Assembly: GCA_963695875.1 (NCBI GenBank)
Contig: CAVOID010000007.1
Location: 1 to 64,000 of the forward strand
Origin: an uncultured delta proteobacterium
Lineage (GTDB): Bacteria > Desulfobacterota > Syntrophia > Syntrophales > UBA2185
Direction: 5' to 3'
Length of the DNA stretch: 64,000 nucleotides
The notes beneath the pieces are model-generated. The model saw only the letters and a program-made list of their open reading frames with translations. It searched no databases and had not been told where the DNA came from. Each line of letters begins with the position of its first letter. Positions within the stretch are counted from its first letter, which is position 1. Both the position numbers and the translations under genes were made by a program. Positions 1,583-63,369 of this stretch are shown here, in pieces.

Positions 1583-1679
1583 CTTACAAAGTGTGGGCGC
1601 GGCCCAGATATCGAAATGCTTCATTTCCATTTGTAATCTGGAATAAAACCTGCTTATACTTCAAGCGCAAATCAGAAAG
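1583..1679 (+). repeat. complete C-N36-A-N35-B site (degenerate)
   Basis: CTTAC 1583-87, 36 bp, TTTCCATTTGTA 1624-35, 35 bp, ATCAGAAAG 1671-79. Confidence 0.55.
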
Positions 1680-1748
1680 ACATAACGGATCAGATTGTTT
1701 TTAGTCTTTGTTCTTTAATTTTTCTTAGAATGAAAGGAGTGTATAATT

Positions 1749-2540
1749 ATGGAAGGTCAGAATTTCATAGAAGCAGTTGATTTTATAAGAAACAACCTGA
1801 GGCTCAAGACTTTCCCGGTGGCAGTTAAGTTCTTGAAGGATAAAAAGGAATTCCCTGAAAAAACCCGCCAACCGTCTGTAGCCCTCGGGAAAAGGATAAC
1901 CATTTGCCAGGCCGTTACTATGGCCCGTGTTTATGGATGGACTATGGGCTTGACAAAGGACGATATTATCTGCGTTCCCGCGGCCATTGCCTTCGGCTTC
2001 AGTACGTCAATCAATTCAGCTGATTCTCTGGGGAAGCTCTTCTGTGAGGGAAGCTACTCGAAAAGTGAGGATGTCGGGCGTAAGGAGGCTGCCTCGATCA
2101 AACTATTGGAGAAGGATGAGTATGAAGCCATTTTGCTTTCACCTTTACAAAGGGCGACCTTTGAACCGGATACGGTTGCCTTTTATGGAAATCCGGCTCA
2201 GCTCATGCGACTGGTACATGCTTGGACTTATCGAGAAGGCCAACGCGTTAAGGGTAACTTTGGAGGTAAAGTTGAATGCACCGAATATCTCCTTGCGCCA
2301 TTTAAGGATCAGGTGCCGCATATTGCCATCCCCGGGACAGGGGACCGTGTCTTCTCCATGACTCAGGATGACGAAATTGTTTTTTCAGCTCCAGGTAAAT
2401 ACCTTATGGAAATAGTTCAGGCTTTCAAGGAGGCAGGGAAAAAAGTTGGTGCACAGTATCCTGTGCCTGTTTATCTTAACTTTCAGCCGGAATTTCCAAA
2501 GCAGTTCAAAGAACTCGGAAAAGAGTTGGGTATTCTATAA
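1749..2540 (+). CDS. DUF169 domain protein
   Basis: PVAVKF..CQA...AR..G...C.A..FG and NPAQLMRL...EC...PG.GDR motifs. Confidence 0.85.
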   Translation: MEGQNFIEAVDFIRNNLRLKTFPVAVKFLKDKKEFPEKTRQPSVALGKRITICQAVTMARVYGWTMGLTKDDIICVPAAIAFGFSTSINSADSLGKLFCEGSYSKSEDVGRKEAASIKLLEKDEYEAILLSPLQRATFEPDTVAFYGNPAQLMRLVHAWTYREGQRVKGNFGGKVECTEYLLAPFKDQVPHIAIPGTGDRVFSMTQDDEIVFSAPGKYLMEIVQAFKEAGKKVGAQYPVPVYLNFQPEFPKQFKELGKELGIL

Positions 2541-2996: not shown

Positions 2997-3038
2997 GTTT
3001 TTCTCCCATTGCCTCACTGTTCCGATAAGGATGATAAG

Positions 3039-3096
3039 TATTTCCAGTTGAAATATTGTAACAGGAAACAATATCAAAAAGCAACACTTCAAGAAG
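3039..3096 (+). repeat. A-N35-B site
   Basis: TTTCCAGTTGAA, 35 bp, TTCAAGAAG. Confidence 0.65.
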
Positions 3097-3131
3097 AAGT
3101 GCTCGCTACCCTCTGTTGGGTCATGTCCCAT

Positions 3132-3410: not shown

Positions 3411-3541
3411 ATTATGTTACCCCTAAAATATTATTCCTTTATTATTTTCAGTTCTACTGTAGTGTTGGCAATAAAGTGAAGTGACTGTTTCTAAGGTAAC
3501 ATATAAAATTTATCAGAATATGTCGAAGAACTACAGAATAT

Positions 3542-3569
3542 TTTTAAGATAATTACCATTTTCTTAAAA
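3542..3569. repeat. dif-like 11-6-11 palindrome X
   Basis: TTTTAAGATAA-TTACCA-TTTTCTTAAAA. Confidence 0.7.
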
Positions 3570-3781
3570 AAATCGACTTTTTTTGTATATGGTTGAACTT
3601 TATACCTGCCTATTCATATCTTTTTGTGAAGACGTAATTGGTTTTTATTGGAAGGCAACCTGCTTGTCCGCCCTAGGAATTACCTCAAAAACAAAAAATG
3701 CAGTTGAAGAAAAATCTCCAACCGCTGCGAAGCCAGTAATGAAGGGTAATCACTTATTTAACCATCAAAACCACTCCGTCC

Positions 3782-8025: not shown

Positions 8026-8511
8026 TCAATATTCGTCCAAAACAGAGAGCCCTCGCTCACCAATCAGAATAATCTCGGTATGGTTCAGACGGGTGGCTAT
8101 TACTTTTGCCGTGGCCTGCATGAAATTATATCCTAATGTAATGTCTTTATTCAGCAGCTCCCTGAGTTTAGCTCCATCGAAGGCAATGGCTTTCGAGTCA
8201 TCAATACATCGAGCTCCTAAGGTGTACACATAAGGCTCAATAACTGCTGACCATCCCATAGCATCTCCCTTTGTGATGAGATCCACAGTGACCTGCATTG
8301 GTGGTTTAGCAGTACCCATGTAGGTATCCATGACCAGAACAACCTTTCCCCCTGCCAACATGTAGAGGTTCTTCGCTGAATCTCCCTTTTTCCACAACTG
8401 GAAACCGGCCTTATAAGATTCTTCGGTAGCGATATCCGCCAGTTTTTTGATCTGTTCCTCACTGAACCCTTTGAAAAAATTGTATTGCTTTAAGAGATCT
8501 ACCGAAACCAT
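8026..8511 (-). CDS. stand-alone cyclic nucleotide-binding domain protein
   Basis: cNMP-fold pattern with GDAMGWSAV; no C-terminal HTH. Confidence 0.85.
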   Translation of the reverse strand: MVSVDLLKQYNFFKGFSEEQIKKLADIATEESYKAGFQLWKKGDSAKNLYMLAGGKVVLVMDTYMGTAKPPMQVTVDLITKGDAMGWSAVIEPYVYTLGARCIDDSKAIAFDGAKLRELLNKDITLGYNFMQATAKVIATRLNHTEIILIGERGLSVLDEY

Positions 8512-8922
8512 GAACTGTTACCTCCTTTCTGAATAGTTGGCATGCTTTTTTCCCCTACAGGAAGTGTTTTTCGAAATTGCATATATTATATTTTTAAATA
8601 CTTTTTTCCTTATAAATCCATCAGGCATATTCTGATTTCAACGGTCTAAATCCCTTAGTCAATAAAGGTCAGAGACAGACAGAGTTTTCTGACAGCAAAC
8701 CCATGAAATTCCTGTGTGGATAATTTGGATATAAAAGATGGCGTGACTTTTCTTGATTTTCACATGAAATGTTGGACTGACGGACTGACTAAGAAAAACA
8801 AAAGAGGAAGCCATCTGCATTTTACATAAACGGAAAGCAGACCGTCAAAGTTTCACATGTTTCTGTCGATTAGGAAGAAGGGAATGCAATTGACATCCAC
8901 ACAGATAGTTCATTTGCCAAAT

Positions 8923-8950
8923 TTTTAAGATTATCAGTATTCTCTTAAAA
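8923..8950. repeat. dif-like palindrome X
   Basis: TTTTAAGATTA-TCAGTA-TTCTCTTAAAA. Confidence 0.7.
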
Positions 8951-9116
8951 ATTTCATTTGCTGCCATACTAGGCGTAGTGGCAATCAAGATATCATAGAC
9001 TCATGAATATTTTATGCTCCGGCGCCAACTAATTTTTCCATGTTCGTCAGCAAGAGTGCCCAAGCGGAACCTTTGCCTTTCATCTCCTAAGTCTGTTTTT
9101 ATTAATGTACTTATAC

Positions 9117-10828: not shown

Positions 10829-10849
10829 CCTTTCTCAATCTAAAAATGT

Positions 10850-11318: not shown

Positions 11319-12098
11319 TCAGTATGTCAGACCTTTCTCTTTTGGCAAACACCACACTTCTTTGATTTTGCAAAGTCGTGCAAGCATCTCTTCGTACTCT
11401 TTATTAATAGCTGCTCTTTCCGTCAGGCCGAGAAACTGGATGATGTATCCATGGGGGCCGGGCATTATAACAAAGGGATACATGCCACCGAGCTTCCCGC
11501 CGCCTATGTCTTCATTGGTTATATTGGGGGCGTAGTACATGACGTGTGGCACGTTAAGGGTGACGACACTGTCGATTTCTTCCGGATTGAAGTACGTTCT
11601 CAGCACTGGAGACAGCATGTCTGAGATACCGACTCGTTCCGGCGCTTTATAGTATCCTGATTTGTAACGGTCTTTTATGATTTTCTTTAGTTCTCCGGGA
11701 GGAGTACCCTTGGCCTGCATTTCTGCTGCGTCAAAGAAGACCCGCATCTGCGCCTTGGCTCCCGCTTTGTCAAAGGAAACCGGGTAGAGAATATCATCTC
11801 TATATTCCGTTAAGGGCCAGGACCCCCTGAACGTATCATCGCCGGTTCGAGCAACAAAAGTGTGGAATCCATTAGTGCCCTTACGGGCGACTTCGAAACC
11901 CTTGTCGGGGTTTAAAACATATACGGTTGCATTGTCTCTGAGGTGGGGCGGCAGCGCGCTTAGCGCAAGCTGAATTTCCAGATCTCGCGGCAATGGCGCG
12001 ATTTTCTTCGTCACCTCAAGAGCCTGTTTATCTTCCGCGCCCGCTGCAAGCGAGAATAATAGAACTGAAATTATTGCAATTATCTGTACCTTTCTCAT
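11319..12098 (-). CDS. secreted hypothetical protein
   Basis: Signal peptide; ALSALPPHLRD.ATVYVL and PHVMYYAPN motifs. Confidence 0.75.
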   Translation of the reverse strand: MRKVQIIAIISVLLFSLAAGAEDKQALEVTKKIAPLPRDLEIQLALSALPPHLRDNATVYVLNPDKGFEVARKGTNGFHTFVARTGDDTFRGSWPLTEYRDDILYPVSFDKAGAKAQMRVFFDAAEMQAKGTPPGELKKIIKDRYKSGYYKAPERVGISDMLSPVLRTYFNPEEIDSVVTLNVPHVMYYAPNITNEDIGGGKLGGMYPFVIMPGPHGYIIQFLGLTERAAINKEYEEMLARLCKIKEVWCLPKEKGLTY

Positions 12099-12112
12099 AT
12101 TGACCTCCCGCC

Positions 12113-12472
12113 TCACATGCCTGTCTTTGACTGCCACAGTCCAAATGTAGCGCCATTTGGATCTGTAATGACACTAAACCACCCCATGTCCGGAACCTCG
12201 GTGACGTCCTTGCAGATCGTTGCCCCCAGGGACTTCGCCTTTTTGGTCGAGGCTCTCACGTCATCGACCAGGATGTACGGAAGCCAATTGTCCGGAATGC
12301 CGGGATCGGGCTTCTTCATCATGCCTCCGCCCGTTCCTTCGCCGACCATGATAATTGTGTAGTCCATGCCCGGAATTTCTTCCAGCTTCCAGTTGAACAA
12401 GCTGGTGTAGAACTTTTTCGATTTCTCCAGGTCTTGCGTCGCCAATTCAACGTGAACAAATGGATTTGCCAT
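12113..12472 (-). CDS. VOC/glyoxalase family protein
   Basis: FVHVEL, GGGMM, WLPYILVDD, DPNGATFGLWQ. Confidence 0.9.
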   Translation of the reverse strand: MANPFVHVELATQDLEKSKKFYTSLFNWKLEEIPGMDYTIIMVGEGTGGGMMKKPDPGIPDNWLPYILVDDVRASTKKAKSLGATICKDVTEVPDMGWFSVITDPNGATFGLWQSKTGM

Positions 12473-12539
12473 ATCGCACCTCCCGTCAAGTTTTTTATGT
12501 CCGCAACCCCCACTAGGCAGGGGCCAAGAATGCGCTTGG

Positions 12540-13043
12540 TTATTTCTGCTCATATGCCCGCTTTAAGGTTTTTATGTCGATCTTTTTCATTTGCAGCATT
12601 GCCTTCATAACCCTTCCCGATTTCTCAGCATCCCTGTCTTGTAACATCTCTACTAAGACAGTGGGAACGATTTGCCATGATACGCTATACTTGTCTTTCA
12701 GCCAGCCGCATTGCTGCGCCTTTTCATCTCCGCCTTCGGAAAGTTTTTCCCAGTAATAATCTGCCTCCTCTTGCGTCTTGCAATGCACTTGAAACGAAAT
12801 GGCTTCGTTGAATTTGAATATCGGACCACCGTTGAGTGCTGTAAATATCTGACCTTCGACCTCGAATTCCACGGTCATGACCGTTCCCGCCGGTCTTCCA
12901 TGAATCTCATAGCCCTCTTTTCCATAGCGGGCAATTCTTCCGATCTTTGAGTTTTTAAAGATAGAGACGTAAAAATTAGCCGCCTCTTCGGCTTGGTTAT
13001 CGAACCATAAACATGGTGTGATTTTTTGAGTGGCGCTTTGCAT
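12540..13043 (-). CDS. PhnB-like VOC protein
   Basis: ITPCLWFD.QAEEA, ALNGGP, CGWLKDKY.VSWQ. Confidence 0.9.
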   Translation of the reverse strand: MQSATQKITPCLWFDNQAEEAANFYVSIFKNSKIGRIARYGKEGYEIHGRPAGTVMTVEFEVEGQIFTALNGGPIFKFNEAISFQVHCKTQEEADYYWEKLSEGGDEKAQQCGWLKDKYSVSWQIVPTVLVEMLQDRDAEKSGRVMKAMLQMKKIDIKTLKRAYEQK

Positions 13044-13323
13044 GGTGTCCCTCCTCAAGAATGAGTTTCTTAGCTTCGTCATCTTTTTTTATACACAACG
13101 AATTCCTGAGCTAAACAAACATTCTTCCTCCATATCGACCCCACCTTGACTATTTTCTGATCATGTGACTCCCTCATTTGATGATGTAAAACAATAGGGA
13201 TTGTTAAGTAGAGGAATGGTAGGCAAAAACTGATAACAAGGGATGATATTCAGCCTTAAGACATAACTTCTTACGGTAAGAGTATATGAAGAATGGTCTT
13301 GTGTCGATGGAACATCAATGACA

Positions 13324-13453
13324 GATTACCGTTTGAAGGGTTGTATGATTGAGAAATCCATCGGGTCATTGACAACAGGAAGGAGTGCTTGATGAAAACA
13401 CCTACAAAGCGAGAGTTTCCGATTTTCAATTGACTTGATGAATACCACTTGTA
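13324..13453 (+). repeat. A-N36-B followed by C-N36-A (130 bp)
   Basis: GATTACCGTTTGAA, N36, AACAGGAAG (13374-82); CCTAC 13401-05, N36, ATACCACTTGTA. Confidence 0.8.
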
Positions 13454-13762
13454 ACGGGCATTTATTAAAGCAGGCATAGCTATCGCGAAGATTGCAAAAA
13501 TAAATATGCCGGCTAATCAGTTGTTGGGTTTAAGGTCGCCACCTAAAAGGCAGGAAAAGGTTATATAGGTACTGAAAGCCTCTCTTAGTTTCAAACCTGA
13601 TTTGTCCAAAACTATATGAAAACTTCAAGAATCCTGCCTACCGAAGACGGTGCTATGAGTTTTAAATCCCTGACAACATGATTATTTGTTTCCATAACTA
13701 TCTCTCTGTATTTTTTATATTAATGACCGAAAAAACATTCAAAGAGAAATATCCGCTCCAGT

Positions 13763-14485: not shown

Positions 14486-14533
14486 AATGATATAGAAAAT
14501 AGCCCCAAAAAACTACTACACTTACCTTATGTC

Positions 14534-14767
14534 GATTACAAGTTGAAATATTGGATAAATAGATGCAAATGGAAAACCAACATAACAGGAAGCTATACTC
14601 AGAAAGAACTTCAGCAAAAATACATAGTATGAAATCATCATATTTTTAAGAATAATTACCATTATCTTAAAGATAATCGGTAGTCGTGAAAGAATTCTTG
14701 CAACACTTGTTAACACCTACAAACAAACGGACTCAAGTCGGTTAAAGTTCATCGACTACCGATGAAA
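14534..14767 (+). repeat. A-N36-B, X palindrome, C-N35-A
   Basis: GATTACAAGTTGAA, N36, AACAGGAAG; X at 14645-72 (TTTAAGAATAA-TTACCA-TTATCTTAAAG); CCTAC 14716-20; GACTACCGATGAAA. Confidence 0.8.
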
Positions 14768-14904
14768 ACAAGTGATAGCCACTCCCTTGATCCACCACCA
14801 GCTTCTGATGGACGAAGCGGCAGAAATGGCAGTGCTTGCAAGAGAAGTCCAGGAGATACAAATAAAGATAGCTGAGGGAGTAGTCGCAAGCGGCCCGCCG
14901 CACA

Positions 14905-15479
14905 TCAGAATGGATTGTAGGTCCTGGTCTTGGTGTAGTGCATGTAGCCTATGCTTGCGCCAGCGCGCAGGCCCACGCCCAGCCGTATCGGCGCGAGGAT
15001 GACTTTATCGCGCTGCTGGTAATTGATGCCCGCGCCACCGACGAAGTAGAAGCTGCCGTCCACCGCCGGGTAACGCCGGAACAACTGCTCGCTGTTGTCG
15101 AGGTGATAGACCAACACGAAAACCTTGGCTGCATTGCCGCCGTAGTCAAAGCCGATGGAGGGGCCGCTCCAGTAAACCTTGCGACTCTCGCCGCTCTTGC
15201 GCATCAGCGTGCCGTCACCGTAACGCAGTCCCACCGTCAATGGCGCCGCTTCGCCTCCTGACCCTTGATATAGGCGTTCGGTCTGCCGTAGTCCTTAAAT
15301 GCTTTCTCGATTACTTTCGCAAGTCCTTCAGTGCTCTTGCCAAAAAATTCAGTGGCATCTTTGAGCACGGAATCCTGGTCGTAGGTATCGGCATCCTTGT
15401 TCTCAGCGGCTAAAGCAGGTACCACGGATAGCGCCACAGTGAGCATGATTGCCAGTAACTTAAGCATGAGTTTAGTCAT
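14905..15479 (-). pseudogene. DUF1134/EipA family protein, frameshifted near 15240
   Basis: GRPNAYI.GQE, then VGLRYGDG..YWSGPSIGFD and LAPIRLGVGLRAG in another frame. Confidence 0.85.
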
Positions 15480-15612
15480 CGTCTTCCTCCTGGGTTGAAA
15501 CTAGCGTTTGTTTGATATTTGACAAGAATCCGCTTCTTGGCGATCCAAATTTATCAAAAGAGTAGTTATTGTGTCAAGAAAAGATGGCCACAAAATGTGG
15601 GGGTGCTGATGA

Positions 15613-15834
15613 TATTTCCGATTGAAATGTAGCATGGTTAGGGAGAAATCAAGATTAACTCTCATAGGAAGAAAGTATCTGAGAAGAAGCTTCTGTTATG
15701 TGAGAGATGAAACACCGGATCGGCATAAGGGTGGTAGATTTAGCAGTTCCGAAAAAATGGTTATTGAAATTGCGTGTTACACCTACTACTGTTCAGTGGT
15801 TGAAAGTTGTCAGAAATGATAATTACCATTTGAA
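15613..15834 (+). repeat. A-N36-B ... C-N36-A
   Basis: TTTCCGATTGAA, N36, CATAGGAAG; CCTAC 15782-86, N36, TTACCATTTGAA. Confidence 0.75.
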
Positions 15835-20716: not shown

Positions 20717-20731
20717 ATTTACCAGATTACT

Positions 20732-20790
20732 GATTAACGATTGTAATCTTCTATCTATTGCTGAAATCAAATTTTATCGCTTTCAGGAAG
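20732..20790 (+). repeat. A-N36-B site
   Basis: GATTAACGATTGTA, N36, TTCAGGAAG. Confidence 0.75.
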
Positions 20791-20840
20791 ATATCAAGGC
20801 TGTACTATATGTGCTAACAGAAAACTTGATGAAATACCGG

Positions 20841-23209: not shown

Positions 23210-23294
23210 TGAAAAATGAACCACAGGTATGTATTATCATCTGTTATCTCAAATGCTTTATAATGACAGAAGTGTGTGGACTTCAGTCAATAAA

Positions 23295-23548
23295 GATAAT
23301 CATTTGAAAGGATGGATCAATGTTAAAAATGCCGGCCGCTTTGTTTCAGGAAGAACGGATTACACTTAGTTGACTGACGAATATTTTTAAGATTATCAGT
23401 ATTATCTTAAAAATGATCGGCACAGTGCAGATTGCCGCATGAAGAACATACAACGAGAGGAATCAGCGGATAAGCCCTTGCAACACTTGTTAACGCCTAC
23501 GAGTCAATATATTCATGAAGCCGGGAAAACTGAAGATTACCAATTGAA
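23295..23548 (+). repeat. A-N36-B, X palindrome, C-N36-A
   Basis: GATAATCATTTGAA, N36, TTCAGGAAG; X at 23385-412 (TTTTAAGATTA-TCAGTA-TTATCTTAAAA); CCTAC 23496-500, N36, TTACCAATTGAA. Confidence 0.85.
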
Positions 23549-23591
23549 AGAGAGTAGGACTCTGCGTCACCAAAAATTGAATGATGGAATT

Positions 23592-24395
23592 CTATCTGCT
23601 GGCTATCTGAATTTTGTTTTCCACGGATTCAACACCTTTGACTTTTATTGCAGCCCTCTCCGCAGCCGATTTTTCCCGGGGAACTTGCACAACCCCTGTT
23701 AACCGGACTTTTCCCGGCGCATCAACGAACGCGGAAACGTAACTTGATGGAAAACCGGCTTCTGCAAGGGCTGTCCCCACTCTCACTGCAAGTTCCATCA
23801 TATCCAGGGAGTTGATCATATCACCGTTGCATCCTTGGATTTCACCTGCGCGGGCTGCACATAAGACCATATCAGCCGCTGTATTGACGGCAAGCTTGTC
23901 CATATTGAGGACAATGTCATACAGCTCAGGATTGTGCCAATCCCGATGGAAGGCAAACCTGATGAAACTTTCTCTCTCGTGATCACTCTTCTCCAGTGCC
24001 ATAGCAGCGGCCTCCCTCGTATAACCCCTCTCCATAAGATTGCGTACACGTTTGTCCTGCGATGCGATTACCCGGACATGAAGCGCATACGGGAGAGACC
24101 GAAAAAGCATATTGCCTCCCCGTCCGAGTATTACTGCGCTCCCCAGGCGTGCAAGTTCATAAATGACTACATACAGCCGGTCCAGGCAAATCTCAGGCCG
24201 GATTGAAAAAAACCTCTTCAACGGAGGCGGAACCTTGCCGTTTACCTCTCTGACGTCATCAAGACATCCCATTTCTTCGGCTTTTTTTTCGATATCTTCT
24301 GTATCATAGAAGGCATACTTCAGTTCTTCCGCCACGAGCTTCGCAATTTCTGTTCCTTTTGTGCCCATCTTCCTGGAAAAGGTAATAAAATACAT
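23592..24395 (-). CDS. cytidylate kinase-like protein with C-terminal BON domain
   Basis: ITFSRKMGTKG, VILGRGG, YDIVLN; V.LTG...GVESVENKI. Confidence 0.85.
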   Translation of the reverse strand: MYFITFSRKMGTKGTEIAKLVAEELKYAFYDTEDIEKKAEEMGCLDDVREVNGKVPPPLKRFFSIRPEICLDRLYVVIYELARLGSAVILGRGGNMLFRSLPYALHVRVIASQDKRVRNLMERGYTREAAAMALEKSDHERESFIRFAFHRDWHNPELYDIVLNMDKLAVNTAADMVLCAARAGEIQGCNGDMINSLDMMELAVRVGTALAEAGFPSSYVSAFVDAPGKVRLTGVVQVPREKSAAERAAIKVKGVESVENKIQIASR

Positions 24396-24475
24396 AGTAT
24401 CCTCCCTACAATCCGACTACTCCGCTGCCAGGTCCTCTCCCTTCGCAACCTATCCGCCACCCACTGTTGAGACAC

Positions 24476-24802
24476 TTAGGCGTGAGGCCCCTGCGAGGCC
24501 CGCGGGGTTTGCTGGAATCGTTCGATTAGATCACGAATGGCTCGTGCGTCGTCTTTGCGATGCCCATGACTCACAATGGGGTTGCTTCCTCCTACCGAAT
24601 CAATTCGGATGTCGGACCATATTAAACCCGTTTGGATATTGACCGAAGCCACTTTAGCGATCGCAATGCTCTCTTCGTTGGAACCAAAGAGTCGCGGCTT
24701 AATCCGCGTAACCCGGGTTTGATTTACTTCAATACGCACCGGGAAAATCAGGTTGCCCGCAGTCCATCGGCTGGCGGTGAATACATGCTTGTCGTCACTC
24801 AT
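24476..24802 (-). CDS. bacterial PH-domain-like protein
   Basis: ASRWTAGN..FP, EESI....VASV. Confidence 0.65.
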   Translation of the reverse strand: MSDDKHVFTASRWTAGNLIFPVRIEVNQTRVTRIKPRLFGSNEESIAIAKVASVNIQTGLIWSDIRIDSVGGSNPIVSHGHRKDDARAIRDLIERFQQTPRASQGPHA

Positions 24803-24939
24803 CGCTTCCTCCTTCGATTCGATAATTTAAATTGATAAGGCATCGCTTCTTCACGGTGCAAGTACATGGTGATTCGAGTCTATGGATACCGAAAGTGGAA
24901 GTAGCTCGTGCAATCTTATCACTCCGGAATCTTGGTTTC

Positions 24940-25515
24940 CTACAAAGTCAACATGGCTGCATAGCTAAACGATATCTCAGGACTATCGACTATTTTGAAT
25001 CCCATTTCCTGAGCTGTTCTCAATGTATCATTAAAACGTCGTTTTGTAACATGGAAACGGGGTTCAGCGATTAAGAAAAAGGCTTTTGGTTTCATGATCT
25101 CTTTTACATTCACAAAAAAGTGCATCAACTCGGGAACCTCGTGCACCATCCAGAACGCTAATACAAAATCGGCTTTCACATCTAAACTAAAGTCATTGGG
25201 TCTGATTAGATTTGTGGTGAGGTTTGCAGCAAGCCCCGCTTCAGATGCCCTCCGTTGCAAGGCCCTTAACATCCTTTCCTGAATATCTACAGCAATGACC
25301 CTTCCTTCTCTTCCCACCAATTTACAGATGGGAATTGTAAAATAACCTTTCCCCGGTCCGATATCCACGACCGTATAGCCGGGTCTGATGTAAGGCGAAA
25401 GGATTTTATAGGGATCTTGGAATATTTTGCGTAGAGGATTATCAAAGGTGAAACATAACCATGACGGACATACATGTTTTCCTCTTACAAATAGCTTATC
25501 AAGAATACTGCCCAC
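24940..25515 (-). CDS. class I SAM-dependent methyltransferase
   Basis: VVDIGPGKG, AVDIQ, FWMVHEV. Confidence 0.9.
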   Translation of the reverse strand: MGSILDKLFVRGKHVCPSWLCFTFDNPLRKIFQDPYKILSPYIRPGYTVVDIGPGKGYFTIPICKLVGREGRVIAVDIQERMLRALQRRASEAGLAANLTTNLIRPNDFSLDVKADFVLAFWMVHEVPELMHFFVNVKEIMKPKAFFLIAEPRFHVTKRRFNDTLRTAQEMGFKIVDSPEISFSYAAMLTL

Positions 25516-25538
25516 CAGAAACCTCCTGTCGGTTCCTT

Positions 25539-25667
25539 TGAGTCGAGTATACCAGTTTCTTCAGATACCACAGGTTGACATTTGAAATATCAAATGTGCG
25601 GGTTATTGACGTTACCTACTACTATACATCCCAGAAAATTTCCATACATCAACGATTACCGCTTGAA
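25539..25667 (+). repeat. D motif followed by C-N36-A
   Basis: TGAGTCGAGTATACCAGTTTCT; CCTAC 25615-19, N36, TTACCGCTTGAA. Confidence 0.75.
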
Positions 25668-25739
25668 ACATTGATTAGAAAAGGCAGCGCCATTTCTGGC
25701 ACTGCCTTTGCCCTCAAACCATCAATCTAATTATTTGTC

Positions 25740-26255
25740 TTAGGGTAACATATACTTGATATTCGCTTTGACATAACTCTGGACGACTCCCTCTTTCGGA
25801 GGTAAAGCGTATCTGGTAAATTCGAAAGAGCCCTTAATCCCGGAGCATTTTCCGGTGCCGCCGATGATGGTAACAGTCCCCTTCGTGATACCCACCATTT
25901 CTGGTTTTGCTGCTTCGCCAGTAGCCTTCACAGTCAGGAACACCTTATCTCCGTTCATAAGATTCCAAACGCCGCTACCACGTTCATCGTTAAATTTACC
26001 TTGCTCAATTGTCAATGACCCAAGAATACGAACAGTCCCTTGATGAAATAGACCCTGTCCTGTGTCAGAAATGGTTAATCCAATGGCATCGTAGGACATG
26101 AAAGCGCGGTCTGCTCCCATAGGAACGACTTTCGCTGTAGCATAATAAGTGGTAGTGGCTGATTCGTTTACTTCTTTGGATTGGGCCTGAACATTTATCC
26201 CAAGAGCAAGCAATAAGACTAAACTCAATACCAATATCAAAATAGATTTTCTCAT
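25740..26255 (-). CDS. secreted beta-rich hypothetical protein
   Basis: Signal peptide; GDK.F and GGTGK..GI.G motifs. Confidence 0.75.
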   Translation of the reverse strand: MRKSILILVLSLVLLLALGINVQAQSKEVNESATTTYYATAKVVPMGADRAFMSYDAIGLTISDTGQGLFHQGTVRILGSLTIEQGKFNDERGSGVWNLMNGDKVFLTVKATGEAAKPEMVGITKGTVTIIGGTGKCSGIKGSFEFTRYALPPKEGVVQSYVKANIKYMLP

Positions 26256-26642: not shown

Positions 26643-26968
26643 AACTTATCCCTCCTTATTAAAAGAATGTTCTTGAATCGGTTCTTGACAAATTAGTGAA
26701 GGAGGCTCCGCAGGAATGCAATCATCCCTGGAAGCCCACAGTATCGGCACCTTCCGGAAACTCCCTCTCATGAACTTCCTCAAGAAGGTTAGGGGTTAGG
26801 TTATTGGTTTACTGAGCTAAGGTTAGTTACTGAGCTACGGGAGGAATATGAATTACTAATGAGCTACAGAAGGAGTGACAATTTATAAAAAGATACTCCT
26901 AACATCAGTGGTAGTCAAGGGGAAATTTTCTCCTGGAAATAGCCTCGATTTTTCAATTCTAAACTGAG

Positions 26969-27027
26969 GATCAGCGATTGAAATCTTGCATTCTGAAGGA
27001 AATTGCAAAAAACAAGACTACAGAAAG
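26969..27027 (+). repeat. A-N36-B site
   Basis: GATCAGCGATTGAA, N36, TACAGAAAG. Confidence 0.7.
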
Positions 27028-27047
27028 TTAGCTTCCTTTCAAGCGCA

Positions 27048-29967: not shown

Positions 29968-30109
29968 CCAAAATCATTGAAGAAGGTATTATTTGTTACA
30001 CCTACACTTATAAGGCCTCCAGATGTCAATAGATAAATTTATCCATCAACGAAATTTTTTTCTTCCGCTCTTTCAAATAACGAACCATCTGGCTATTGGC
30101 AGCAATTCT

Positions 30110-30450
30110 GACTTTGTTTCAACATAGGCGTCGGGAGAATGATCCCGCACCATACACTTATAGAGGTTCAACTACCTATTCAATCTGCCCAGGGGAAAAG
30201 AGAGAGTCCGCCGGGCATCAGGCAGCTGCAAGGCGAAATCATCACCTTGCGACCTGGAAAATATACCGTACCCTCATGCCGTCCTAATCAAATAACGGGG
30301 TATGGGAATCATCCCCAGTAAGTAGCAGGTTCGGTTGAGGAGCAGAACCTTTCCAACGAGCCAAAGAGCACGTTATGGAAAATTGTAGGAGCGGAACGGA
30401 CCTCCAATCAAGTCAAGGGAATATCGGGTTTATTCGTCATATCATCGAAT
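30110..30450 (-). ncRNA. putative bridge/seek RNA of IS110 #2
   Basis: Target guides at 30409-14 and 30383-89; donor guide at 30155-62; ends approximate. Confidence 0.75.
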
Positions 30451-30553
30451 ATGCGTTCATGGACGCAAGGGTTTTCTTCTCCCTCGATGCGGACACATGC
30501 TCGTACCCATAGTTGTTCCATTAGGTGCCCGGGCTGATCCGTTCCCTCCATAT

Positions 30554-31598
30554 TCATAGGCTCAGCAGTTTGTTTTGATCGAAAGCCTCCTTGTTCTTGA
30601 GCATGAAATATACGGCCCGTCCCAATTTATGGGCAAGGATAGACAGGGCTTTTGCTTTGCCGTGTTTCCTGGTAAGCCTGTCTACATATTTCTTTGCCAG
30701 ATCATTGCTTTTGAGAAAGAAGACGGCGGCCTCGGAAAAGGCCCACTTGAGGTGAACGTTTCCTATTTTACTGCCGCCGGAGCCGCATTTTTTCCCATTG
30801 GATTCTTTGGCGCATTTTACGAGGCGGCTGTATGAGGCAAAGTCCTGCACACTGGCAAAGCGGCGGATATTTTCTATTTCGTACAGCATGATCAGGGCGA
30901 TGATTTTTCCAACTCCCGGGATGGTCTGGAGTAAGGCATAGGAAACCGGGTCGTGGTTATTGGCCAGTTTAATTATGGATTTTTCGAGTTGCAATAAGAT
31001 GCCGTCATAGGTCCTGATCATTTCAATATCTACGGCAATGCTTTTCTGCACGGAAGGCTGTTCAAATTGCCCGGCAATGCCGTTCCTGTTCTGATGTCTT
31101 GAAATGGGGCCAAAGGAATCAGGCAGGTTGTACTGGCTGTTGGTGTTCTGGATGTGAGCGTAGAGTTCGGAGCGTTTTCTCATAAGGTGATTCCGGCGTC
31201 TCATGAGGTCACGCGTGGATCTCATCTTTGCTGGATATACATAGGCCATGGGGATCATGCCTCCTCTGAGGAGTGCGGCGATCTTTTGGGAGTCGATCTT
31301 GTCGGTTTTTTGCTTTCCCGCCATGGATTGCCTTCATGTAGAGGGCATGTCCGAGGACGAAGGGAATGCCTTCGTTGTGGCAAAGATCGGCTACCCAGTA
31401 CCAGGTGAAGATGCATTCTACGGCAACGACGATATCCTCACGAAAGGGAGCGATGGCTTTGAGAAAGGCATCACGGTCGGTTTTCAGGTTGCGATGTTCC
31501 CTGATTTCTCCTTTTTCATCGAGGATGCAGATATACATTTTTCTTGTGTGTAGATCGATTCCGCAGTGATACTTGTGCTGATTAGTGTAAAATCTCAT
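30554..31598 (-). pseudogene. IS110 transposase with a single frameshift near 31305
   Basis: GIDLH, AVEC, HGGKAK / DKIDS, IPGVG, GNVHLKWAFSEAA. Confidence 0.9.
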
Positions 31599-31783
31599 GG
31601 GGCTTCCTCCTTCTTCTGGTATTATTTGGCCCTACTCAATTCCAAATATACCATGCTTTGGGGGAGGCCTTAAATAGTATCAAGTCCTCAATCCAAGATA
31701 ATTCCGAAAGTCAACGATTATGGTTAGAAATGTGCATAAAAAAACAGGGACATAGCGACCCCGCCTTTGTGGAGTGTAGTGAA

Positions 31784-32626: not shown

Positions 32627-32642
32627 TGCAATGCTGACCATT

Positions 32643-32697
32643 GATTACCACTTGAAAGGATGCATATCTGTCAAAATCATCGGATGCTTGACTTCAG
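32643..32697 (+). repeat. A-N36-B site with B split by IS110 #3
   Basis: GATTACCACTTGAA, N36, TTCAG | GAAG (34315-18). Confidence 0.85.
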
Positions 32698-34067: not shown

Positions 34068-34079
34068 GGTATTATTACA

Positions 34080-36269: not shown

Positions 36270-36537
36270 TGAGTCAAGTAGACCGGTTTCTCCCCATTGA
36301 ACGTAATAAATACAAAACCCCGCACTCTTTTTGAGTAACAGGGTTTTAATAATCTCTTCATGGCACCACCCTTACAAAAAGGGTTCAGATTAGTTGTTAA
36401 CCTTTCGACGATGCCCTATTTAAATATGATTATTTTTGTGCTCCCAATTCTTTAAAAAGTCAAGAGACAAATTTCATTGATAACCATTTGAAAGGGTGCA
36501 TATCTGTCAAAATCACCGGATACTCCCTTTCAGGAAG
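36270..36537 (+). repeat. D motif, weak C-N36-A, A-N36-B
   Basis: D at 36270-96; CTTAC 36371-75, N36, TGCCCTATTTAA; GATAACCATTTGAA, N36, TTCAGGAAG (36479-537). Confidence 0.75.
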
Positions 36538-36658
36538 AACTAAATAGGCTTTCCCACTGCTCGATGTGAACAAGATTGAACCGCATGATTATCAAAGAAC
36601 CTGGCAAATTTTTTGCTAGAGCATTAGTGCTGGAAATGGGCGATAGACAACTCTCCAG

Positions 36659-40199: not shown

Positions 40200-40685
40200 A
40201 TGGTTTCCGCAGATCTCTTAAGACAATTCGTGTTTTTTAAAGGTTTTGATGAGGGTGATTTAAAGAAACTGTCAGGTGTCGCTTCTGAAGAATCGTTTAA
40301 AGCAGGAGTTCAGGTCTATAAGAGAGGTGATCCGGCAAAAAAACTCTATCTCGTGGAAGAGGGAAAATTTGTCATGCTCATGGAGAGTTACATGGGCACC
40401 GCTAAACCCCCCATGCAGGTGACTGTGGATATCGTCACAAAGGGTGATGCCATGGGATGGTCCGCTGTTGTTGAACCTTACGCTTATACCTTAGGGGCCC
40501 TGTGCATTGACAATGCAAAGGCCATTGCTTTTGATGCGGAGAAACTCAGGGAACTACTGATTCAAGACGGTGCTTTAGGACTTAATTTTATGCAGGCCAC
40601 GGCGCGGGTAATAGCCGCCCGTCTGACCCACACCCAGATCATATTGGTTGGTGAGAGGGGACTGTCTACCTTGGCTGAGACGTGA
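40200..40685 (+). CDS. cyclic nucleotide-binding domain protein
   Basis: Close paralog of 8026-8511. Confidence 0.85.
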   Translation: MVSADLLRQFVFFKGFDEGDLKKLSGVASEESFKAGVQVYKRGDPAKKLYLVEEGKFVMLMESYMGTAKPPMQVTVDIVTKGDAMGWSAVVEPYAYTLGALCIDNAKAIAFDAEKLRELLIQDGALGLNFMQATARVIAARLTHTQIILVGERGLSTLAET

Positions 40686-40716
40686 TGAAGGATAGATCAT
40701 AAAGGAGGTAACTACG

Positions 40717-41136
40717 ATGTTCATACAAGAAGTAGAGCTTTTCAAAGGGATTCCCTCACATATCATTGACGAAATTGCAGAACTCGTCACTCAGGAAAGT
40801 CACCCGGCAGGACATGTATTGTTTCGAGAAGGCGATTTTGCAGATTATCTTTATATTCTTGAAGAAGGAGATCTTGATCTTACCGTTAAGAGGGATAAAC
40901 AACTCTCCTTTTCAGTAGATAAGACAGGTTCTGTATTTGGTTGGTCATCACTTGTAGAGCCGAATCTGTACACGGCTAAAGCGGAATGTGTAAAGGAAAG
41001 CAGGGTGATAAAAATTGACGCAGATCGCCTGATGCGCGTGTTTCAAAAGCATCCTGCCGAGGGTCTGACGATCATGAAGCGTCTGGCAGGGGTCATCGCT
41101 ACACGGCTTATTAAGAGTTACAAGGAGGTCATCTGA
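40717..41136 (+). CDS. cyclic nucleotide-binding domain protein
   Basis: LFREGD, FGWSSL. Confidence 0.85.
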   Translation: MFIQEVELFKGIPSHIIDEIAELVTQESHPAGHVLFREGDFADYLYILEEGDLDLTVKRDKQLSFSVDKTGSVFGWSSLVEPNLYTAKAECVKESRVIKIDADRLMRVFQKHPAEGLTIMKRLAGVIATRLIKSYKEVI

Positions 41137-41210
41137 ACAGTCGTTCCATTTGAGCAATCAGGATGTGAACCTTGTAGTGACAAGTAGTGGGTTGCCTCAA
41201 CGACCTGCAT

Positions 41211-41269
41211 CTTCCTGTAATATGGTTTTTATAATTCAGTCAATCTCGACAGCACTTCAAGTAGCAATC
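41211..41269 (-). repeat. A-N36-B site
   Basis: + strand reads CTTCCTGTA, N36, TTCAAGTAGCAATC. Confidence 0.75.
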
Positions 41270-41344
41270 AGTAGTGACCTAGGAACATTACAATAAAAAG
41301 GGGTTAGAGCTGATCTCTAACCCCGCGGTGTAATTTTTTTCTTT

Positions 41345-42864: not shown

Positions 42865-42935
42865 ATTAATGACTAAAATAGTATCGGAAAAATTTTGACC
42901 TGTCCCCCCCGAAAATCAGATTATAGTACGTATAG

Positions 42936-43095
42936 CTTCCTGTAATCTAGTTTTTCTCAACTTGTTGCTCTATGCAATATTTCAATCGATAATCCTTATT
43001 CCTATCAACAAAAAAGGCAGAGCCACTCGACCCTGCCTCTCCGATGAAAGTTAAAAATTAGTTTACTCTTTAACCTTTTTTCTTACTCCTGCCAA
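42936..43095 (-). repeat. A-N36-B plus terminator; ~160-bp repeat, copy 1
   Basis: CTTCCTGTA, N36, TTCAATCGATAATC; matches 45584-45745. Confidence 0.85.
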
Positions 43096-45420: not shown

Positions 45421-45583
45421 AAATACCTCTCACTTGTCCCGGCTTCTGAATTCTATTATCCTATTGGACTATATTTTTTTCAATCCATTTTTTTACACAT
45501 GGTTGATGTATGCCTCACCATTTTTGTCCTCGCGGTTTGAGGCACTTTGGAGGTGAACTAAACAACCTCCTTTTTATGATTTC

Positions 45584-45745
45584 CTTCCTGTAATCTAGTT
45601 TTTCTCAATTTGTTGCTCTATGCAATATTTCAATCGTTAATCGATAAAGTGGGTAAATAAAAAAGGCAGGGCTAATCGACCCTGCCTTTCTGTTGAAAGT
45701 TAAAAAATTAGTTTACTCTTTAAACTTCCTCCTCGCTCCTGCAAC
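45584..45745 (-). repeat. A-N36-B plus terminator; ~160-bp repeat, copy 2
   Basis: CTTCCTGTA, N36, TTCAATCGTTAATC. Confidence 0.85.
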
Positions 45746-46033: not shown

Positions 46034-46418
46034 ATATGATTGAAAAGCTGACCTTATGTTACGAACTTATTATAAATTATGTAAAGCGAAAATCATCATT
46101 CACATTTAATGTATTTTAATATTAATCAATATTAATCAATATTGTCTGTTATTCTTATTATCGCCAACTTAATAGCAAAACTTTAGAATAAATTTTATAT
46201 GCCTAAGTTTCTATCCAAATGAATTAATGGGATACTTTACTTCAGCTGAGATAGCCTTTGCTTCGTCCTGAAGTTTTGATTTACCAATTTTACCTATTTA
46301 TACTACATTATAATAGAAAATAATCAAAAGCAGCAGAATTATAACTTTAAATGTGGTACATAGACAACATAACCTACGAATATGACCATTAACGATCAGC
46401 ATGTAAAGGAGAAGGGAT

Positions 46419-47657: not shown

Positions 47658-47757
47658 TGGCTATGGACCGTCCTTGAAACAAAGAGGTCTTTGGGGTAAT
47701 AAAATATATAGATGTCAAGGCGGTTATGATTTCTCAAGTGCATAGATTGCTACGGTG

Positions 47758-47816
47758 CTTCCTGAAAGAGTGATTTTTAAAAATCTCGCCTCGATACAAC
47801 ATTTCAAGAGGTAATA
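47758..47816 (-). repeat. A-N36-B site
   Basis: CTTCCTGAA, N36, TTCAAGAGGTAAT. Confidence 0.8.
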
Positions 47817-48077
47817 AAGAATCTCATTCTGGTGATGAAGTGTTTTCCATATCGTAACCCCATGGAAGGTGCGTAATTTGTGGAGAAGTCTTCAATCTGA
47901 ACAGAAGTCATTGCCGGAGCTTTTCCTATCAATAATTCTTTATTTCTATTGGATAAAACTTACAACTAAACAGTTCTAAAGAATTAATGCCCCGTGGATT
48001 AATACGGTTTGAATCTTAAGACTGGATGATGTAAGTTAAAATTAAATTTGAAAAATAGAATACGAAGGAATCATCCT

Positions 48078-53961: not shown

Positions 53962-54150
53962 TGAGTCGAGTAGACCAGTTTCTCCCCATACCACAGGTTG
54001 AGGTTTGTTTTCTCCGTTTACCGCTTGGTTTCCCAGCGGTATCACAATATTTTAATCTTATATCAGATTTCTTAAGGCTTTGCATACCAATTACTACTAC
54101 TTGTAATCTACGACTGAACTCCAAAATTTTATTCTAACAGTTACTGGAAG
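53962..54150 (+). repeat. D motif, degenerate X, A-N36-B
   Basis: D at 53962-54001; CTACTACTTGTA, N36, TACTGGAAG (54092-150). Confidence 0.7.
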
Positions 54151-60300: not shown

Positions 60301-63206
60301 CGATGCAAGCGTCATCATCAAGAATCACCGCGGGCAATCCGGTCTCTGGGGCTACGCCATTTCCGGCGATTTGCCGATCGTACTCCTGCGGATTGAAGAT
60401 CCGGCCAATATTGACCTGGTGCGTCAACTCATACAGGCCCATACGTACTGGCGCTTAAAAGGACTGGCGGTGGACCTGGTGATCTGGAACGAAGATCACG
60501 CCGGTTACCGGCAGCAACTCCAGGAACAAATCATGGGGCTCATTGCCGCAGGCGTCGGAGCCCACGTGACGGATCAACCGGGCGGCATTTTCGTAAGGCC
60601 TGCGGACCAGATATCGAGCGAGGAACGCATCCTGCTCCAAACGGTCGCCCGCGCCATCGTCACCGACAGCCGGGGGATGCTGGCGGACCAGATCAACCGC
60701 AGAAGCCTCGTGGAATTAACCGTGCCGCGCCTTACGCCGACCCGGACTCGACCGTGGCGCCCCCCCGGCAGTTGCCGCCTTGCCTCGCCACGATCTGCTG
60801 TTTTTCAACGGACTCGGCGGATTCACCCCTGATGGCCGCGAGTACATCATTACAACCACGCATGATCAGGTGACGCCGGCGCCATGGGTGAATGTCCTGG
60901 CGAATCCGCACTTCGGAACCGTCATCTCGGAGAGCGGCTCTGCCTATACCTGGGCCGAGAATGCCCACGAGTTTCGCCTCACTCCCTGGTATAACGATCC
61001 CGTGAGCGATACGAGCGGGGAAGCGTTCTACCTCCGCGATGAAGAGCGCGGCCACTTCTGGTCTCCCATGCCGCTGCCCAGCCGCGGGGCGACGCCTTAC
61101 GCCACCCGGCACGGATTCGGCTACAGCGTCTTCGAGCACACAGAGCGCGGCATCCGCTCCGAGGTATGGGTTTACGTGGCCATGGACGCATCGATCAAGT
61201 TTACGGTGTTGAAGGTGAGAAACGAGTCAGGCCGATCACGCCGGCTCTCTGCTACCGGATATGCGGAATGGGTTCTGGGAGATCTGCGGCCCAAAACGAC
61301 CATGCATGTGATCACCGAAATTGACCCCAACAGCGGAGCGCTTTTCGCGCGGAACCCTTACAATACGGAGTTCCCCGACCGGACTGCCTTTTTCGACGTG
61401 GACGAAGCGACCCGGACGGTAAGCGGCGACCGGACGGAATTCCTGGGGCGGAACGGCACGCTCGCGAGTCCGGCCGCGATGACCCGGTTGCGGCTCTCCG
61501 GCAGGGTAGGGGCCGCCCTGGACCCCTGCGCCGCGATCCAGGTTTCCTTCGAACTGGCCGCCGGGCAGGAACGTGAAATCGTCTTCAGGCTCGGCGTCGG
61601 GCGGGACGCCGAGGACGCCGGCAACCTGGTGCGTCGCTTCCGGGGATCTGCCGCCGCGCGCAACGCGCTCGAAACGGTCTGGCAATACTGGCAACACACG
61701 CTCGGCGCAGTGAACGTGGAAACACCGGACCAGTCCCTCAACATGTTGACCAACGGCTGGCTCTTGTACCAGACGCTGGCATGCCGCCTGTGGGCGCGCA
61801 GCGGCTACTACCAGTCCGGGGGCGCCTTCGGTTTTCGCGATCAGTTGCAGGACGTGATGGCGCTCATCCACACCGAGCCGCGCCTCGTGCGCGAGCACCT
61901 CCTTCTTGCCGCAGGCCGTCAATTCCCCGAGGGTGATGTACAGCACTGGTGGCATCCTCCTCAAGGCCGCGGCGTGCGCACACACTGTTCCGACGATTAC
62001 CTCTGGCTGCCGTTGGCGATGTGCCGCTACGTCCGGAGCACCGGGGATTACGGTGTATTGGATGAGACCATCCACTTCCTTCAGGGCCGCCCGATAAACG
62101 CGAATGAGGATTCCTATTACGATCTGCCCGGCCGGTCTCAAGAAGCGGCCAGTTTGTATGAACACTGTGTAAGAGCCATCCTGAGAGGTCTCAACTATGG
62201 CGAGCACGGATTGCCGCTCATGGGCTCCGGCGACTGGAACGACGGCATGAACATGGTGGGCGCAGAGGGGAAAGGCGAAAGCGTCTGGCTGGGCTTTTTC
62301 CTGTATGATGTGCTTATGCAATTCACTGAGGTTGCCCGCAGGCGTGGCGATCTACCCTTCGCCGAACGGTGCGAGGCAGAGGCGGCTCAGATGCGCCGGA
62401 ACATCGAGCAGCATGGCTGGGATGGCGGGTGGTACCGCCGCGCTTACTTCGACGACGGCTCGCCGCTTGGGTCGATGAGTAACCCCGAATGCCGGATTGA
62501 TTCGATTGCGCAAAGCTGGTCTGTTCTCTCCGGCGCAGGTGATGCCGAACGCGCGCGCATGGCCATGGAGGCGGCGGATCAGCGCCTTATCCACCGGGAC
62601 CAGGCGCTGATCCAACTCCTGGACCCGCCCTTCGACAAGTCTGATTTGAATCCCGGCTACATCAAGGGATACGTCCCCGGCGTACGGGAGAATGGCGGGC
62701 AATACACCCATGGGGCGATCTGGATGGCGATGGCCTTCGCTCAATTGGGCGACAGCCGGCGCGCCTGGGAACTGATGGCCATGATCAATCCGGTGAACCA
62801 TGCGAGGTCTCCTGAGTCGATTGCGACTTACAAAGTGGAACCCTACGCCGTCGCGGCCGACGTTTATGCGCTCTCACCGCACACCGGCCGCGGCGGATGG
62901 ACGTGGTACACCGGTTCGGCCGGCTGGATGTACCGGCTGATCGTGGAATCACTCCTGGGGCTGAGGCTGGAGGTGGATAGACTGAGTTTCGCACCGCTCC
63001 TCCCGGCGGATTGGGAGGGCTTCACGGTGCACTACCGTTATCGGGAAACGGTCTACCACATCGCCGTTCTGCGCAGGCAGGTCGGCGATGGCGCAACGAG
63101 TGTGACCGTCGACGGCGCCCCGCAACAGGATACAACGATTACCCTTGTTGACGACCATCAGGAACACGCAGTCGAGGTGAGAATACCCGCAGACGGAATT
63201 GAGTGA
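54381..63206 (+). pseudogene. ndvB: cyclic beta-1,2-glucan synthase (GT84 plus GH94), about 5 frameshifts
   Basis: [67 protein letters not shown]. Confidence 0.92.
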
Positions 63207-63369
63207 GTCGAGTAGACCGGTTTCTCCCGATGCTACAGCATATCTGCTGTAAACCTTTGTAGGAGAGGGATTAATTGATAACAGGAAATAGCCACGGAGG
63301 TTGCCTGTTTCATTCACCTACATGTCTTCACAAACGCTCGGCAAATAAGAGTTAAGATGTCGTAATGAA
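63204..63369 (+). repeat. D motif followed by C-N36-A
   Basis: TGAGTCGAGTAGACCGGTTTCTCCC begins at the ndvB stop codon; CCTAC 63317-21, N36, TGTCGTAATGAA. Confidence 0.65.

Follow-up and report, generated by a model that had tools for sequence, protein, structure and literature searches.

Three short sequence boxes, which we call C, A, and B, recur between the genes of a 64,000-nt stretch of DNA (hereafter, the window; G000:C7:1-64000) from an uncultured delta proteobacterium of the order Syntrophales. The source genome, G000, comprises 2.86 Mb in 16 contigs and is 82.6% complete. The A box has the consensus GATTACCnnTTGAAA, and the C box occurs upstream of A in the context TGTTA(A)CACCTAC. 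An initial annotation interpreted the boxes as parts of a lambda-type attachment site that brackets mobile cargo genes. Here, we show that the underlying observation of C, A, and B is sound and extends well past the window, and we consider whether the boxes could instead belong to a family of modular intergenic repeats.

Iterated nhmmer searches across G000 define two modules. The A-B module is approximately 65 nt long, terminates sharply in CAGGAAG, and is present in 60 copies at E<1e-3 in the genome, 15 of which lie in the window. The C-A module, of approximately 62-70 nt, starts at CACCTAC and yields 36 matches at E<=1 in the genome, including six in the window. Both modules share a 15-17-nt A box at fixed spacings. 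Copies of A-B are only approximately 64% alike per column and display zero length variation, and their information profile is one of boxes plus spacers. Specifically, the order is ATT(acc), TTGAAA, tgTTGnAT, a spacer with little conservation, AAAaT, AAAAaC, and aTTnCAGGAAG, and conservation drops off abruptly past the final G. Scans of the window against Rfam, at gathering thresholds, and for tRNA/tmRNA genes yielded no matches.

On the plus strand, A-B copies reside at 13320..13384 (E 4.9e-05; an orthologue exists in the relative G007 and a paralogue on contig C11 of G000), at 14530..14594 (E 8.4e-07), approximately 45 nt upstream of the start of the opposite-strand NAD kinase gene, and at 15609..15673 (E 2.2e-06), 20728..20792 (E 5.7e-04), 23291..23355 (E 2.4e-05), 26965..27029 (E 1.8e-07), and 36475..36539 (E 1e-10). 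Another copy, at 32639..32697 (E 4.2e-07; model positions 2-59), is interrupted within B (TTCAG|) by an IS110-family insertion sequence (IS) at 32698-34312 that has transposase Pfam matches; B resumes at 34313. The same strand carries a weak copy at 3035..3099 (E 2.2e-04) and a partial copy at 8751..8801 (E 7.7e-05; model positions 3-51). Minus-strand A-B copies lie at 41209..41273 (E 1.9e-07), at 42934..42998 (E 2.2e-10), past the terminator of an OmpA-family gene and with a diverged counterpart, by eye, at the corresponding position in G007, at 45582..45646 (E 9.2e-11), bordering an M48 peptidase unit, and at 46262..46326 (E 1.6e-04) and 47756..47820 (E 5.9e-10). The plus-strand C-A module at 13391..13454 (E 1.4e-07; spacing 36 nt) begins 7 nt past the preceding B and, together with 13320-13384, completes an A-B-C-A series. 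Further plus-strand C-A modules occupy 15770..15834 (E 2.9e-09), 23486..23550 (E 2.5e-08), at the start of the unit 23477-25542, and 25601..25668 (E 3.2e-07), after which comes the terminator of the adjoining minus-strand gene. The C-A module at 29995..31731 (plus strand) is split after CACCTA by an IS110 copy at 30005-31680, and the sequence of an IS-free joint is present in metagenome run X1. Finally, a C-A copy whose A box is degenerate and whose spacing is 35 nt (14708..14768, plus strand) is recovered by regular expression with <=3 mismatches and is not among the nhmmer matches.

The boxes and their spacing exceed chance expectation. With <=3 mismatches allowed, the A pattern has 26 matches in the window versus 8.9 expected, and none of 100 shuffles reaches 26; the B pattern has 47 versus 18.7, again with no shuffle of 100 as high. 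The C word by itself is weakly enriched (19 versus 9.9 expected; two of 100 shuffles reach 19). The initial annotation had placed CCTAC 35 or 36 nt before the TTACC-type start of A at seven strong sites, and this spacing stands at six: it is 36 nt at 13401, 15782, 23496, and 25615, 35 nt at 14716, and 36 nt at 30001/31681 once the 1676-nt IS110 copy is excised, as it is at joint 30004->31681 in a run X1 contig. At the seventh, 63317, the C box is present, but its A partner has >3 mismatches and no reported profile match. Five of the six window CCTAC words located 0-75 nt upstream of A-like sites fall at 35-36 nt. Genome-wide, where the initial annotation had called for an enrichment check, 21 of 52 fall at 35-37 nt, 13 of them at exactly 36 nt, compared to one of 37 for the control word GTAGG, the reverse complement of CCTAC. 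The weaker copies reported at 1583, 36371, and 41936-88 have no nhmmer match at E<=1 with either profile. The supposed equidistance of C and B from A holds only approximately, with approximately 34-36 nt separating C from A and approximately 36-38 nt separating the end of A from the AGG of B. The order C-A, genes, A-B is correct for all five cargos that had been named, and at least 17 same-orientation pairs of this type, 0.25-4.9 kb apart, exist in the genome.

Composite repeats and their placement among genes

C-A is called 7-131 nt after an A-B in six cases in the genome. Therefore, the recurrent compound, and the natural unit, is A-B-linker-C-A, of approximately 135-150 nt, and not C-A-B. 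Neither module profile reveals a significant fused C-A-B anywhere in the genome. The one that had been proposed, at 1583..1679 on the plus strand, has no match at E<=1 to either profile and by eye is a degenerate look-alike adjoining an IS110 copy. The 16-28-nt linker of the composite is flanked by B and C sequences that are, by eye, partly inverted (AGG-N3-AAC ... GTT-N3-CCT).

Clean arrays of the composite exist in two relatives from another family, G125 and G054. There, one or more genes are followed by A-B, a 16-nt linker, and C-A, and then by the next gene or genes, with the cycle repeated 6-8 times. Therefore, what appeared as "C-A, cargo, A-B" is the gene unit between two successive composites. 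All 11 open reading frames (ORFs) in one array (L045, G125) and all 13 in the other (L047, G054) run opposite to the repeat strand. Array genes are ordinary: they include a Fur-rubrerythrin-catalase group and genes for HU, KhpA, a cold-shock protein (CspA), superoxide dismutase, and PAS/GGDEF and HD-GYP proteins. The 57 ORFs examined at seven loci in relatives include no integrase or transposase. In the window, the NAD kinase gene is the sole copy found in the incomplete (82.6%) genome.

A, B, and C do not exhaust the modules of the family. In eight of the 60 A-B copies, an inverted A box lies 40-49 nt past B, producing pairs of 123-127 nt. Members of this subfamily, with inverted A at both ends, reside at C4:122567-122690, C4:277038-277164, and C11:135709-135831 of G000, and their homology runs approximately 60 nt further, to a TTTGTATTTG-type box. 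Some A-B copies are nearly identical, such as 42936-42994 and 45584-45642, at 97%. Also present is an 80-nt palindrome-plus-C element (14640..14721, plus strand) that stops exactly at the C box. Copies that are 88-96% identical exist on contig C11 of G000 and in six relatives of several genera (G019, G013, G018, G002, G016, and G020), with weaker copies (approximately 82-85%) in G017 and G003; in most of the copies fetched, C is followed by a spacer and then by A. AT-rich palindromes of the ATTTTTAAGATAAT-N4-ATTATCTTAAAAAT type recur at 14643-14674, 23383-23414, 8921-8952, and 3540-3571. The C-linked element looks like an operator. We note that the element is better conserved among relatives than are the neighboring genes, and that stand-alone cyclic nucleotide monophosphate (cNMP)-binding proteins are encoded near palindromes (8026-8511 and 40200-41136). 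We dropped a reading of C as a leader peptide, as the frame is lost between the TTGTTAACACC and TTGTTACACC variants. A separate small repeat, TGAGTCGAGTAGACC..., has four copies in the window (25539-25584, 36270-36297, 53962-54007, and 63204-63249), one of which lies at the right border of a unit common to G002.

In the window, promoter-like sites (TTGACA-17-TATGCT at 23209-23181 is one) separate the A of A-B from the start of the minus-strand gene, and terminators adjoin the A of C-A modules (for example, 31762-31747). In the cases inspected, the composite fills the gap from the terminator of one unit to the sigma-70-like promoter of the next, with the distance from A to the promoter-like site varying from 36 to 86 nt. 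By crude longest-ORF calls, A-B is antisense to co-oriented neighbors 32 times and sense three times (binomial p 4e-7). A replication-linked origin of this polarity was set aside, as the polarity is weakly associated with regional GC skew (p 0.066). A-B does not qualify as a promoter on either strand: by eye, there is no acceptable -35/-10 pair, and the promoter-like sites fall outside the module.

Among 121 genomes of the order Syntrophales, screened with a sequence-only covariance model, 75 carry A-B, with one to at least 42 copies each. The complete genome of G007 has 36 copies, and G032, G125, and G054 have at least 42 each. Copy number falls to 0-3 in close relatives and varies inside a single genus (g21: at least 42 in G054, seven in G035, and three in G113). 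An exact-pattern scan of 185,579 species genomes revealed 23 loci, titled Smithella, Smithellaceae, Syntrophaceae, Thermodesulfobacteriota, or delta-proteobacterium metagenome-assembled genomes (MAGs). Homologues of array genes in relatives lie in mostly repeat-free contexts: nhmmer found no module at any of 16 such loci, nor at L006 and L007. In G012, one A-B copy lies approximately 630 nt beyond the NAD kinase gene's 3' end. No clean comparison of a filled with an empty site was obtained from the loci of relatives, which were non-syntenic or lacked repeats.

Homology borders and plastic regions

Crossover within A had been proposed, but the homology borders lie at the outer ends of the composite, past B and at C. 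When A-B copies are aligned with 300-nt flanks, 23 of 52 pairwise alignments end in the last 5 nt of B, and alignment starts scatter up to 235 nt beyond A into the adjoining promoter region. For 13320-13384, its C11 paralogue, and its G007 orthologue, divergence begins immediately past CAGGAAG in all three. Homology of the M48 peptidase unit with G007 likewise breaks off no more than a few bases from the B end in 45582-45646. Metagenome contigs join differing left contexts to the same sequence right of C. Moreover, A boxes paired around one cargo resemble each other no more than unpaired A boxes do (11.5 versus 12.3 identical of 20 positions; permutation p 0.99, 17 pairs). Fused or hybrid A-to-A junctions, which had been expected in reads, account for none of the 13 joints listed from contigs of four metagenome runs, although contigs drop rare variants, making this lack no proof of absence. 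A joint at 14576->15797 was not used, as only 20 letters support it. The variants in the four runs are IS presence or absence and plain gene deletions.

Regions that carry the repeats have lost synteny. Specifically, across the window segments 10.8-21 kb and 38-52 kb, the matches to five to forty relatives, members of the genus included, cover only one gene or a pair of genes at a time and lie on scattered contigs. A control segment free of repeats (C3:120-134 kb) remains collinear with G002 over 5.6 kb and with G007 over 8.2 and 5.8 kb. At 95% identity, the unit 23477-25542 is also present in G002, where its neighbors differ. Thus, one part of the mobile-cargo claim survives, namely, that the motifs bound gene units found in differing contexts among relatives; the attachment-site mechanism is not supported. 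Separately, run X2 contigs skip 23597-24424, with loss of a cytidylate-kinase-like/BON gene, and 25837-26321, an internal deletion; the ends of both lack a repeat box.

Three IS110-family elements reside in the window. The element at 30005-31680 lies in a C box, is polymorphic in the sampled population, as its IS-free joint in run X1 attests, and has a 98.5% identical copy in another C box, at C11:223982-225675. The presence of these copies in two C boxes suggests guide-directed targeting of CACCTA|C. An unrelated IS110 lies at a C box in G018, and the element at 32698-34312 lies inside a B box. Beside the second IS110 copy, at C11:226129-227607, are duplicates (96-100% amino acid identity) of the two cNMP-binding genes at 40200-41136. 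Finally, the EipA gene of the window is split into two frames (14905-15240 and 15237-15479), and a short-read contig of run X1 is one base shorter at 15237 and at 15253. The frameshift looks like an assembly indel error rather than a pseudogene, and the other split genes of the window, encoding ETF, AFOR, and the GH94 glucan phosphorylase, are probably errors of the same type.

Competing explanations

We favor, at a probability of roughly 0.55, the interpretation that C, A, and B are boxes of lineage-specific modular intergenic repeats of Smithella-like Syntrophales that border promoter-carrying gene units in plastic regions, without a dedicated integrase. Such repeats would act as double-stranded DNA and not as hairpins. 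Regarding folding, alifold returns no consensus fold of A-B on either strand. The A-B consensus is self-complementary (0.645 paired versus 0.38-0.43 when slid), but row-shuffled controls pair equally (0.631+-0.013) and there is, therefore, no covariation. Fold z-scores are near 0 for 11 of 12 modules and five of six junction strands; among whole A-B-C-A junctions, 13320-13458 alone folds well (z -2.3), and two others do not. We suppose that the repeats spread or vanish in the manner of non-autonomous mobile repeats because relatives differ in copy number, from 0 to at least 42. They could furnish dispersed homology patches for the exchange of gene units, by general recombination between copies or with incoming DNA, and repeat-rich regions would constitute the plastic part of Smithella-like genomes. 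A dedicated lambda-type or integron-type integrase would not be involved.

Several points weigh against this interpretation. The mode of spread of the repeats, and a role for them in driving the reshuffling, are inferred rather than demonstrated. Copies that are approximately 64% alike per column are, for that reason, poor substrates for homologous recombination, except in near-identical subfamilies. Neither a target-site duplication nor an autonomous partner was found in G000. The order-wide, position-specific conservation and the variable spacers of fixed length are no less compatible with protein binding than with a selfish repeat. Repeat density and lost synteny may go together by coincidence, with repeats piling up where insertions are tolerated. 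No repeat-to-repeat joints appear in the four metagenome runs. Some unit borders, moreover, have no repeat: the right end of 23477-25542 relative to G002 and the left end at 10831 relative to G007. Likewise, compared to G007, gene 11319-12137 has a two-gene block (12068-13096, glyoxalase-like and PhnB-like) inserted in its 5' end. The former gene start survives as a relic at approximately 13097-13140, and the junction lacks repeat boxes.

The likeliest alternative, which we nonetheless regard as improbable, is that these are plain repeats akin to miniature inverted-repeat transposable elements (MITEs), that is, non-autonomous elements inserting in terminator-promoter gaps, with the plasticity of the neighborhood incidental. 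Patchy copy number that varies strongly within genera, a size of 65-200 nt, the 123-127-nt subfamily with inverted A at both ends, and the 97% pair all speak for it. However, the main forms have direct A boxes, and random insertion leaves the strict polarity toward neighboring genes unexplained. By eye, no target-site duplication exists at six inverted-A copies in G000, and homology continues past the inverted A with no clear terminus. In G000, the one genome examined for this purpose, there is also no transposase between inverted A boxes and no convincing autonomous partner flanked by A boxes. The resemblance of TTAC and GTAG had suggested mobilization by IS200 elements or by transposases associated with repetitive extragenic palindromes (RAYTs), and this was rejected. 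Specifically, the one RAYT gene of G000 (C4:140133-140843, L001:1468-2178; NF047646, 82.5 bits versus an 80-bit cut-off) lies between inverted GGGGACGGTTCTC-type repeats that bear no relation to A, B, or C, and neither G007 (36 copies) nor G032 (at least 42) has a Y1_Tnp match.

Next in standing, and in our estimation doubtful, is a cassette platform in which A-B|C-A is the site of XerCD, an IS110-type enzyme, or another recombinase, and promoter-bearing units are exchanged by crossover at B|C. The regular gene-site-gene arrays, the strict polarity, the sharp homology borders at B and C, the partial inversion of B and C about the linker, and the differing contexts of units among relatives are as such a platform predicts. 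No recombinase was found whose occurrence follows repeat load. G000 has six tyrosine-recombinase matches: XerD, XerC, two small Xer-/invertase-like proteins, and a pair on C11. The C11 pair was rejected as the recombinase of the system, as close homologues occur in six of 120 other genomes and are not tied to copy number. G054 and G125, with at least 42 copies each, have only two tyrosine-recombinase matches each to the query used, presumably XerC and XerD. Moreover, excision joints are lacking in the four runs, array genes have their own promoters and include ordinary operons, and several unit borders lack a site. A particular version, in which A-B|C-A would act as attachment site for a second cassette platform, independent of integrons and served in trans by a non-IntI recombinase (host Xer, an IS110-type RNA-guided enzyme, or another protein), strikes us as slightly more doubtful again. 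This version would account for the strict polarity, for the regular arrays, and for synteny being lost gene by gene. We note that the C11 pair (C11:107911-109901, L020:4412-6402) is Xer-like and lies beside C-A modules, and that one of its genes has two in-frame TGA codons. Its homologues in other families (G090, G014, and G093) are 84-89% identical and always comprise a 302-aa and a 380-400-aa protein; the pair is probably a separate mobile element.

Less likely still is that the boxes are architectural or regulatory punctuation, with a bound protein bracketing each transcription unit as an insulator, a looping site, or the target of a global regulator. The fixed-length box-and-spacer profile, the terminator-promoter placement, and the polarity tied to the immediate genes are in line with this possibility. 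So too is an orthologous site in G007 at which, by eye, A and B persist although the spacer between them has changed. The GATAAT-N4-ATTATC palindrome linked to C, which we take to resemble Fur-family operators, could likewise be a protein-binding site. Against this explanation, a core regulatory site would hardly be expected to fall to 0-3 copies in close relatives, A lies at varying distances from the promoter-like sites, by eye no promoter consensus fits either strand, and no binding protein was identified.

The model of the initial annotation, a lambda-type C-A-B site with crossover in A and with C-A and A-B as attL and attR of the cargo, is very improbable. The spacings within C-A and A-B, which are fixed, and the arrangement of genes between C-A and A-B agree with it, but attL/attR-like A pairs show no greater likeness than unpaired A boxes, homology ends at B and C rather than in A, the recurrent form is A-B-C-A with no significant fused C-A-B, A-to-A joints were not seen in the four runs, and an integrase is neither in the window (none of 68 ORFs has a Phage_integrase match) nor consistently near arrays. 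Least credible of all, and refuted by the defining features checked, is that the repeats are attC sites of an integron or of a cluster of attC sites lacking an integron integrase (CALIN): co-oriented single-gene units are indeed set apart by approximately 140-nt repeats, but these have no consensus fold, pairing no better than shuffled controls, fold z-scores near 0, and end boxes that are direct and not inverted, the units have their own promoters, and all six tyrosine-recombinase matches in the 82.6% complete genome fall under the TIGR02249 and NF011946 cut-offs for integron integrases.

Known repeat families and meaning for the Syntrophales

The nearest analogues of the repeats are the intergenic mosaic elements of neisseriae (NIMEs) and the modular BOX elements. 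NIMEs comprise short conserved boxes plus variable spacers, in arrays beside variable genes, that are proposed to promote exchange of neighboring genes and that are integration sites for an element-encoded transposase or recombinase (PMC1797815). The repeats studied here share the boxes with variable spacers of fixed length, the clustering, the lost synteny relative to a collinear control, and the IS110 landings. They differ from NIMEs, whose dRS3 boxes are inverted repeats of 20 bp and whose arrays contain nothing but repeats, in that the boxes here are asymmetric, have strict gene polarity, form one composite per gap, occur in anaerobic Syntrophales, and have no sequence similarity to NIMEs. 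BOX elements of Streptococcus pneumoniae (boxA-boxB-boxC) are modular intergenic repeats with set sub-element orders and variable copy number that end in inverted repeats, show target-site duplications, and are predicted to form stem-loops (PMC3049150). The modules here are unlike BOX in having no fold signal and mostly direct A boxes.

Two other comparisons are instructive. Repetitive extragenic palindromes (REPs) are abundant extragenic repeats chosen by IS110-family elements for insertion (PMC1525189, PMC11208160, PMC11187229). Like REPs and the bacterial interspersed mosaic elements (BIMEs), the family described here is extragenic and is hit by IS110 elements. REPs, however, are palindromic hairpins mobilized by RAYTs, whereas the modules here have no palindromic fold and no linked Y1 transposase. 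Integron arrays and CALINs likewise consist of co-oriented gene units between a recurring site, with the same units in other contexts elsewhere. The present arrays differ in having no attC fold, no IntI, a repeat polarity opposite to the genes, and promoters borne by the units. No prior description of the C/A/B repeats was found in the full-text literature library searched.

If the interpretation as modular intergenic repeats holds, a previously undescribed repeat system spans an order of syntrophic, mostly uncultured anaerobes, where it punctuates transcription units and coincides with scrambled gene order. The repeats would then mark the variable compartments of MAGs and would offer natural, repeated landing sites for IS110 (bridge-RNA) elements. 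In organisms for which genetic tools do not exist, they would provide a handle on the movement of accessory genes.

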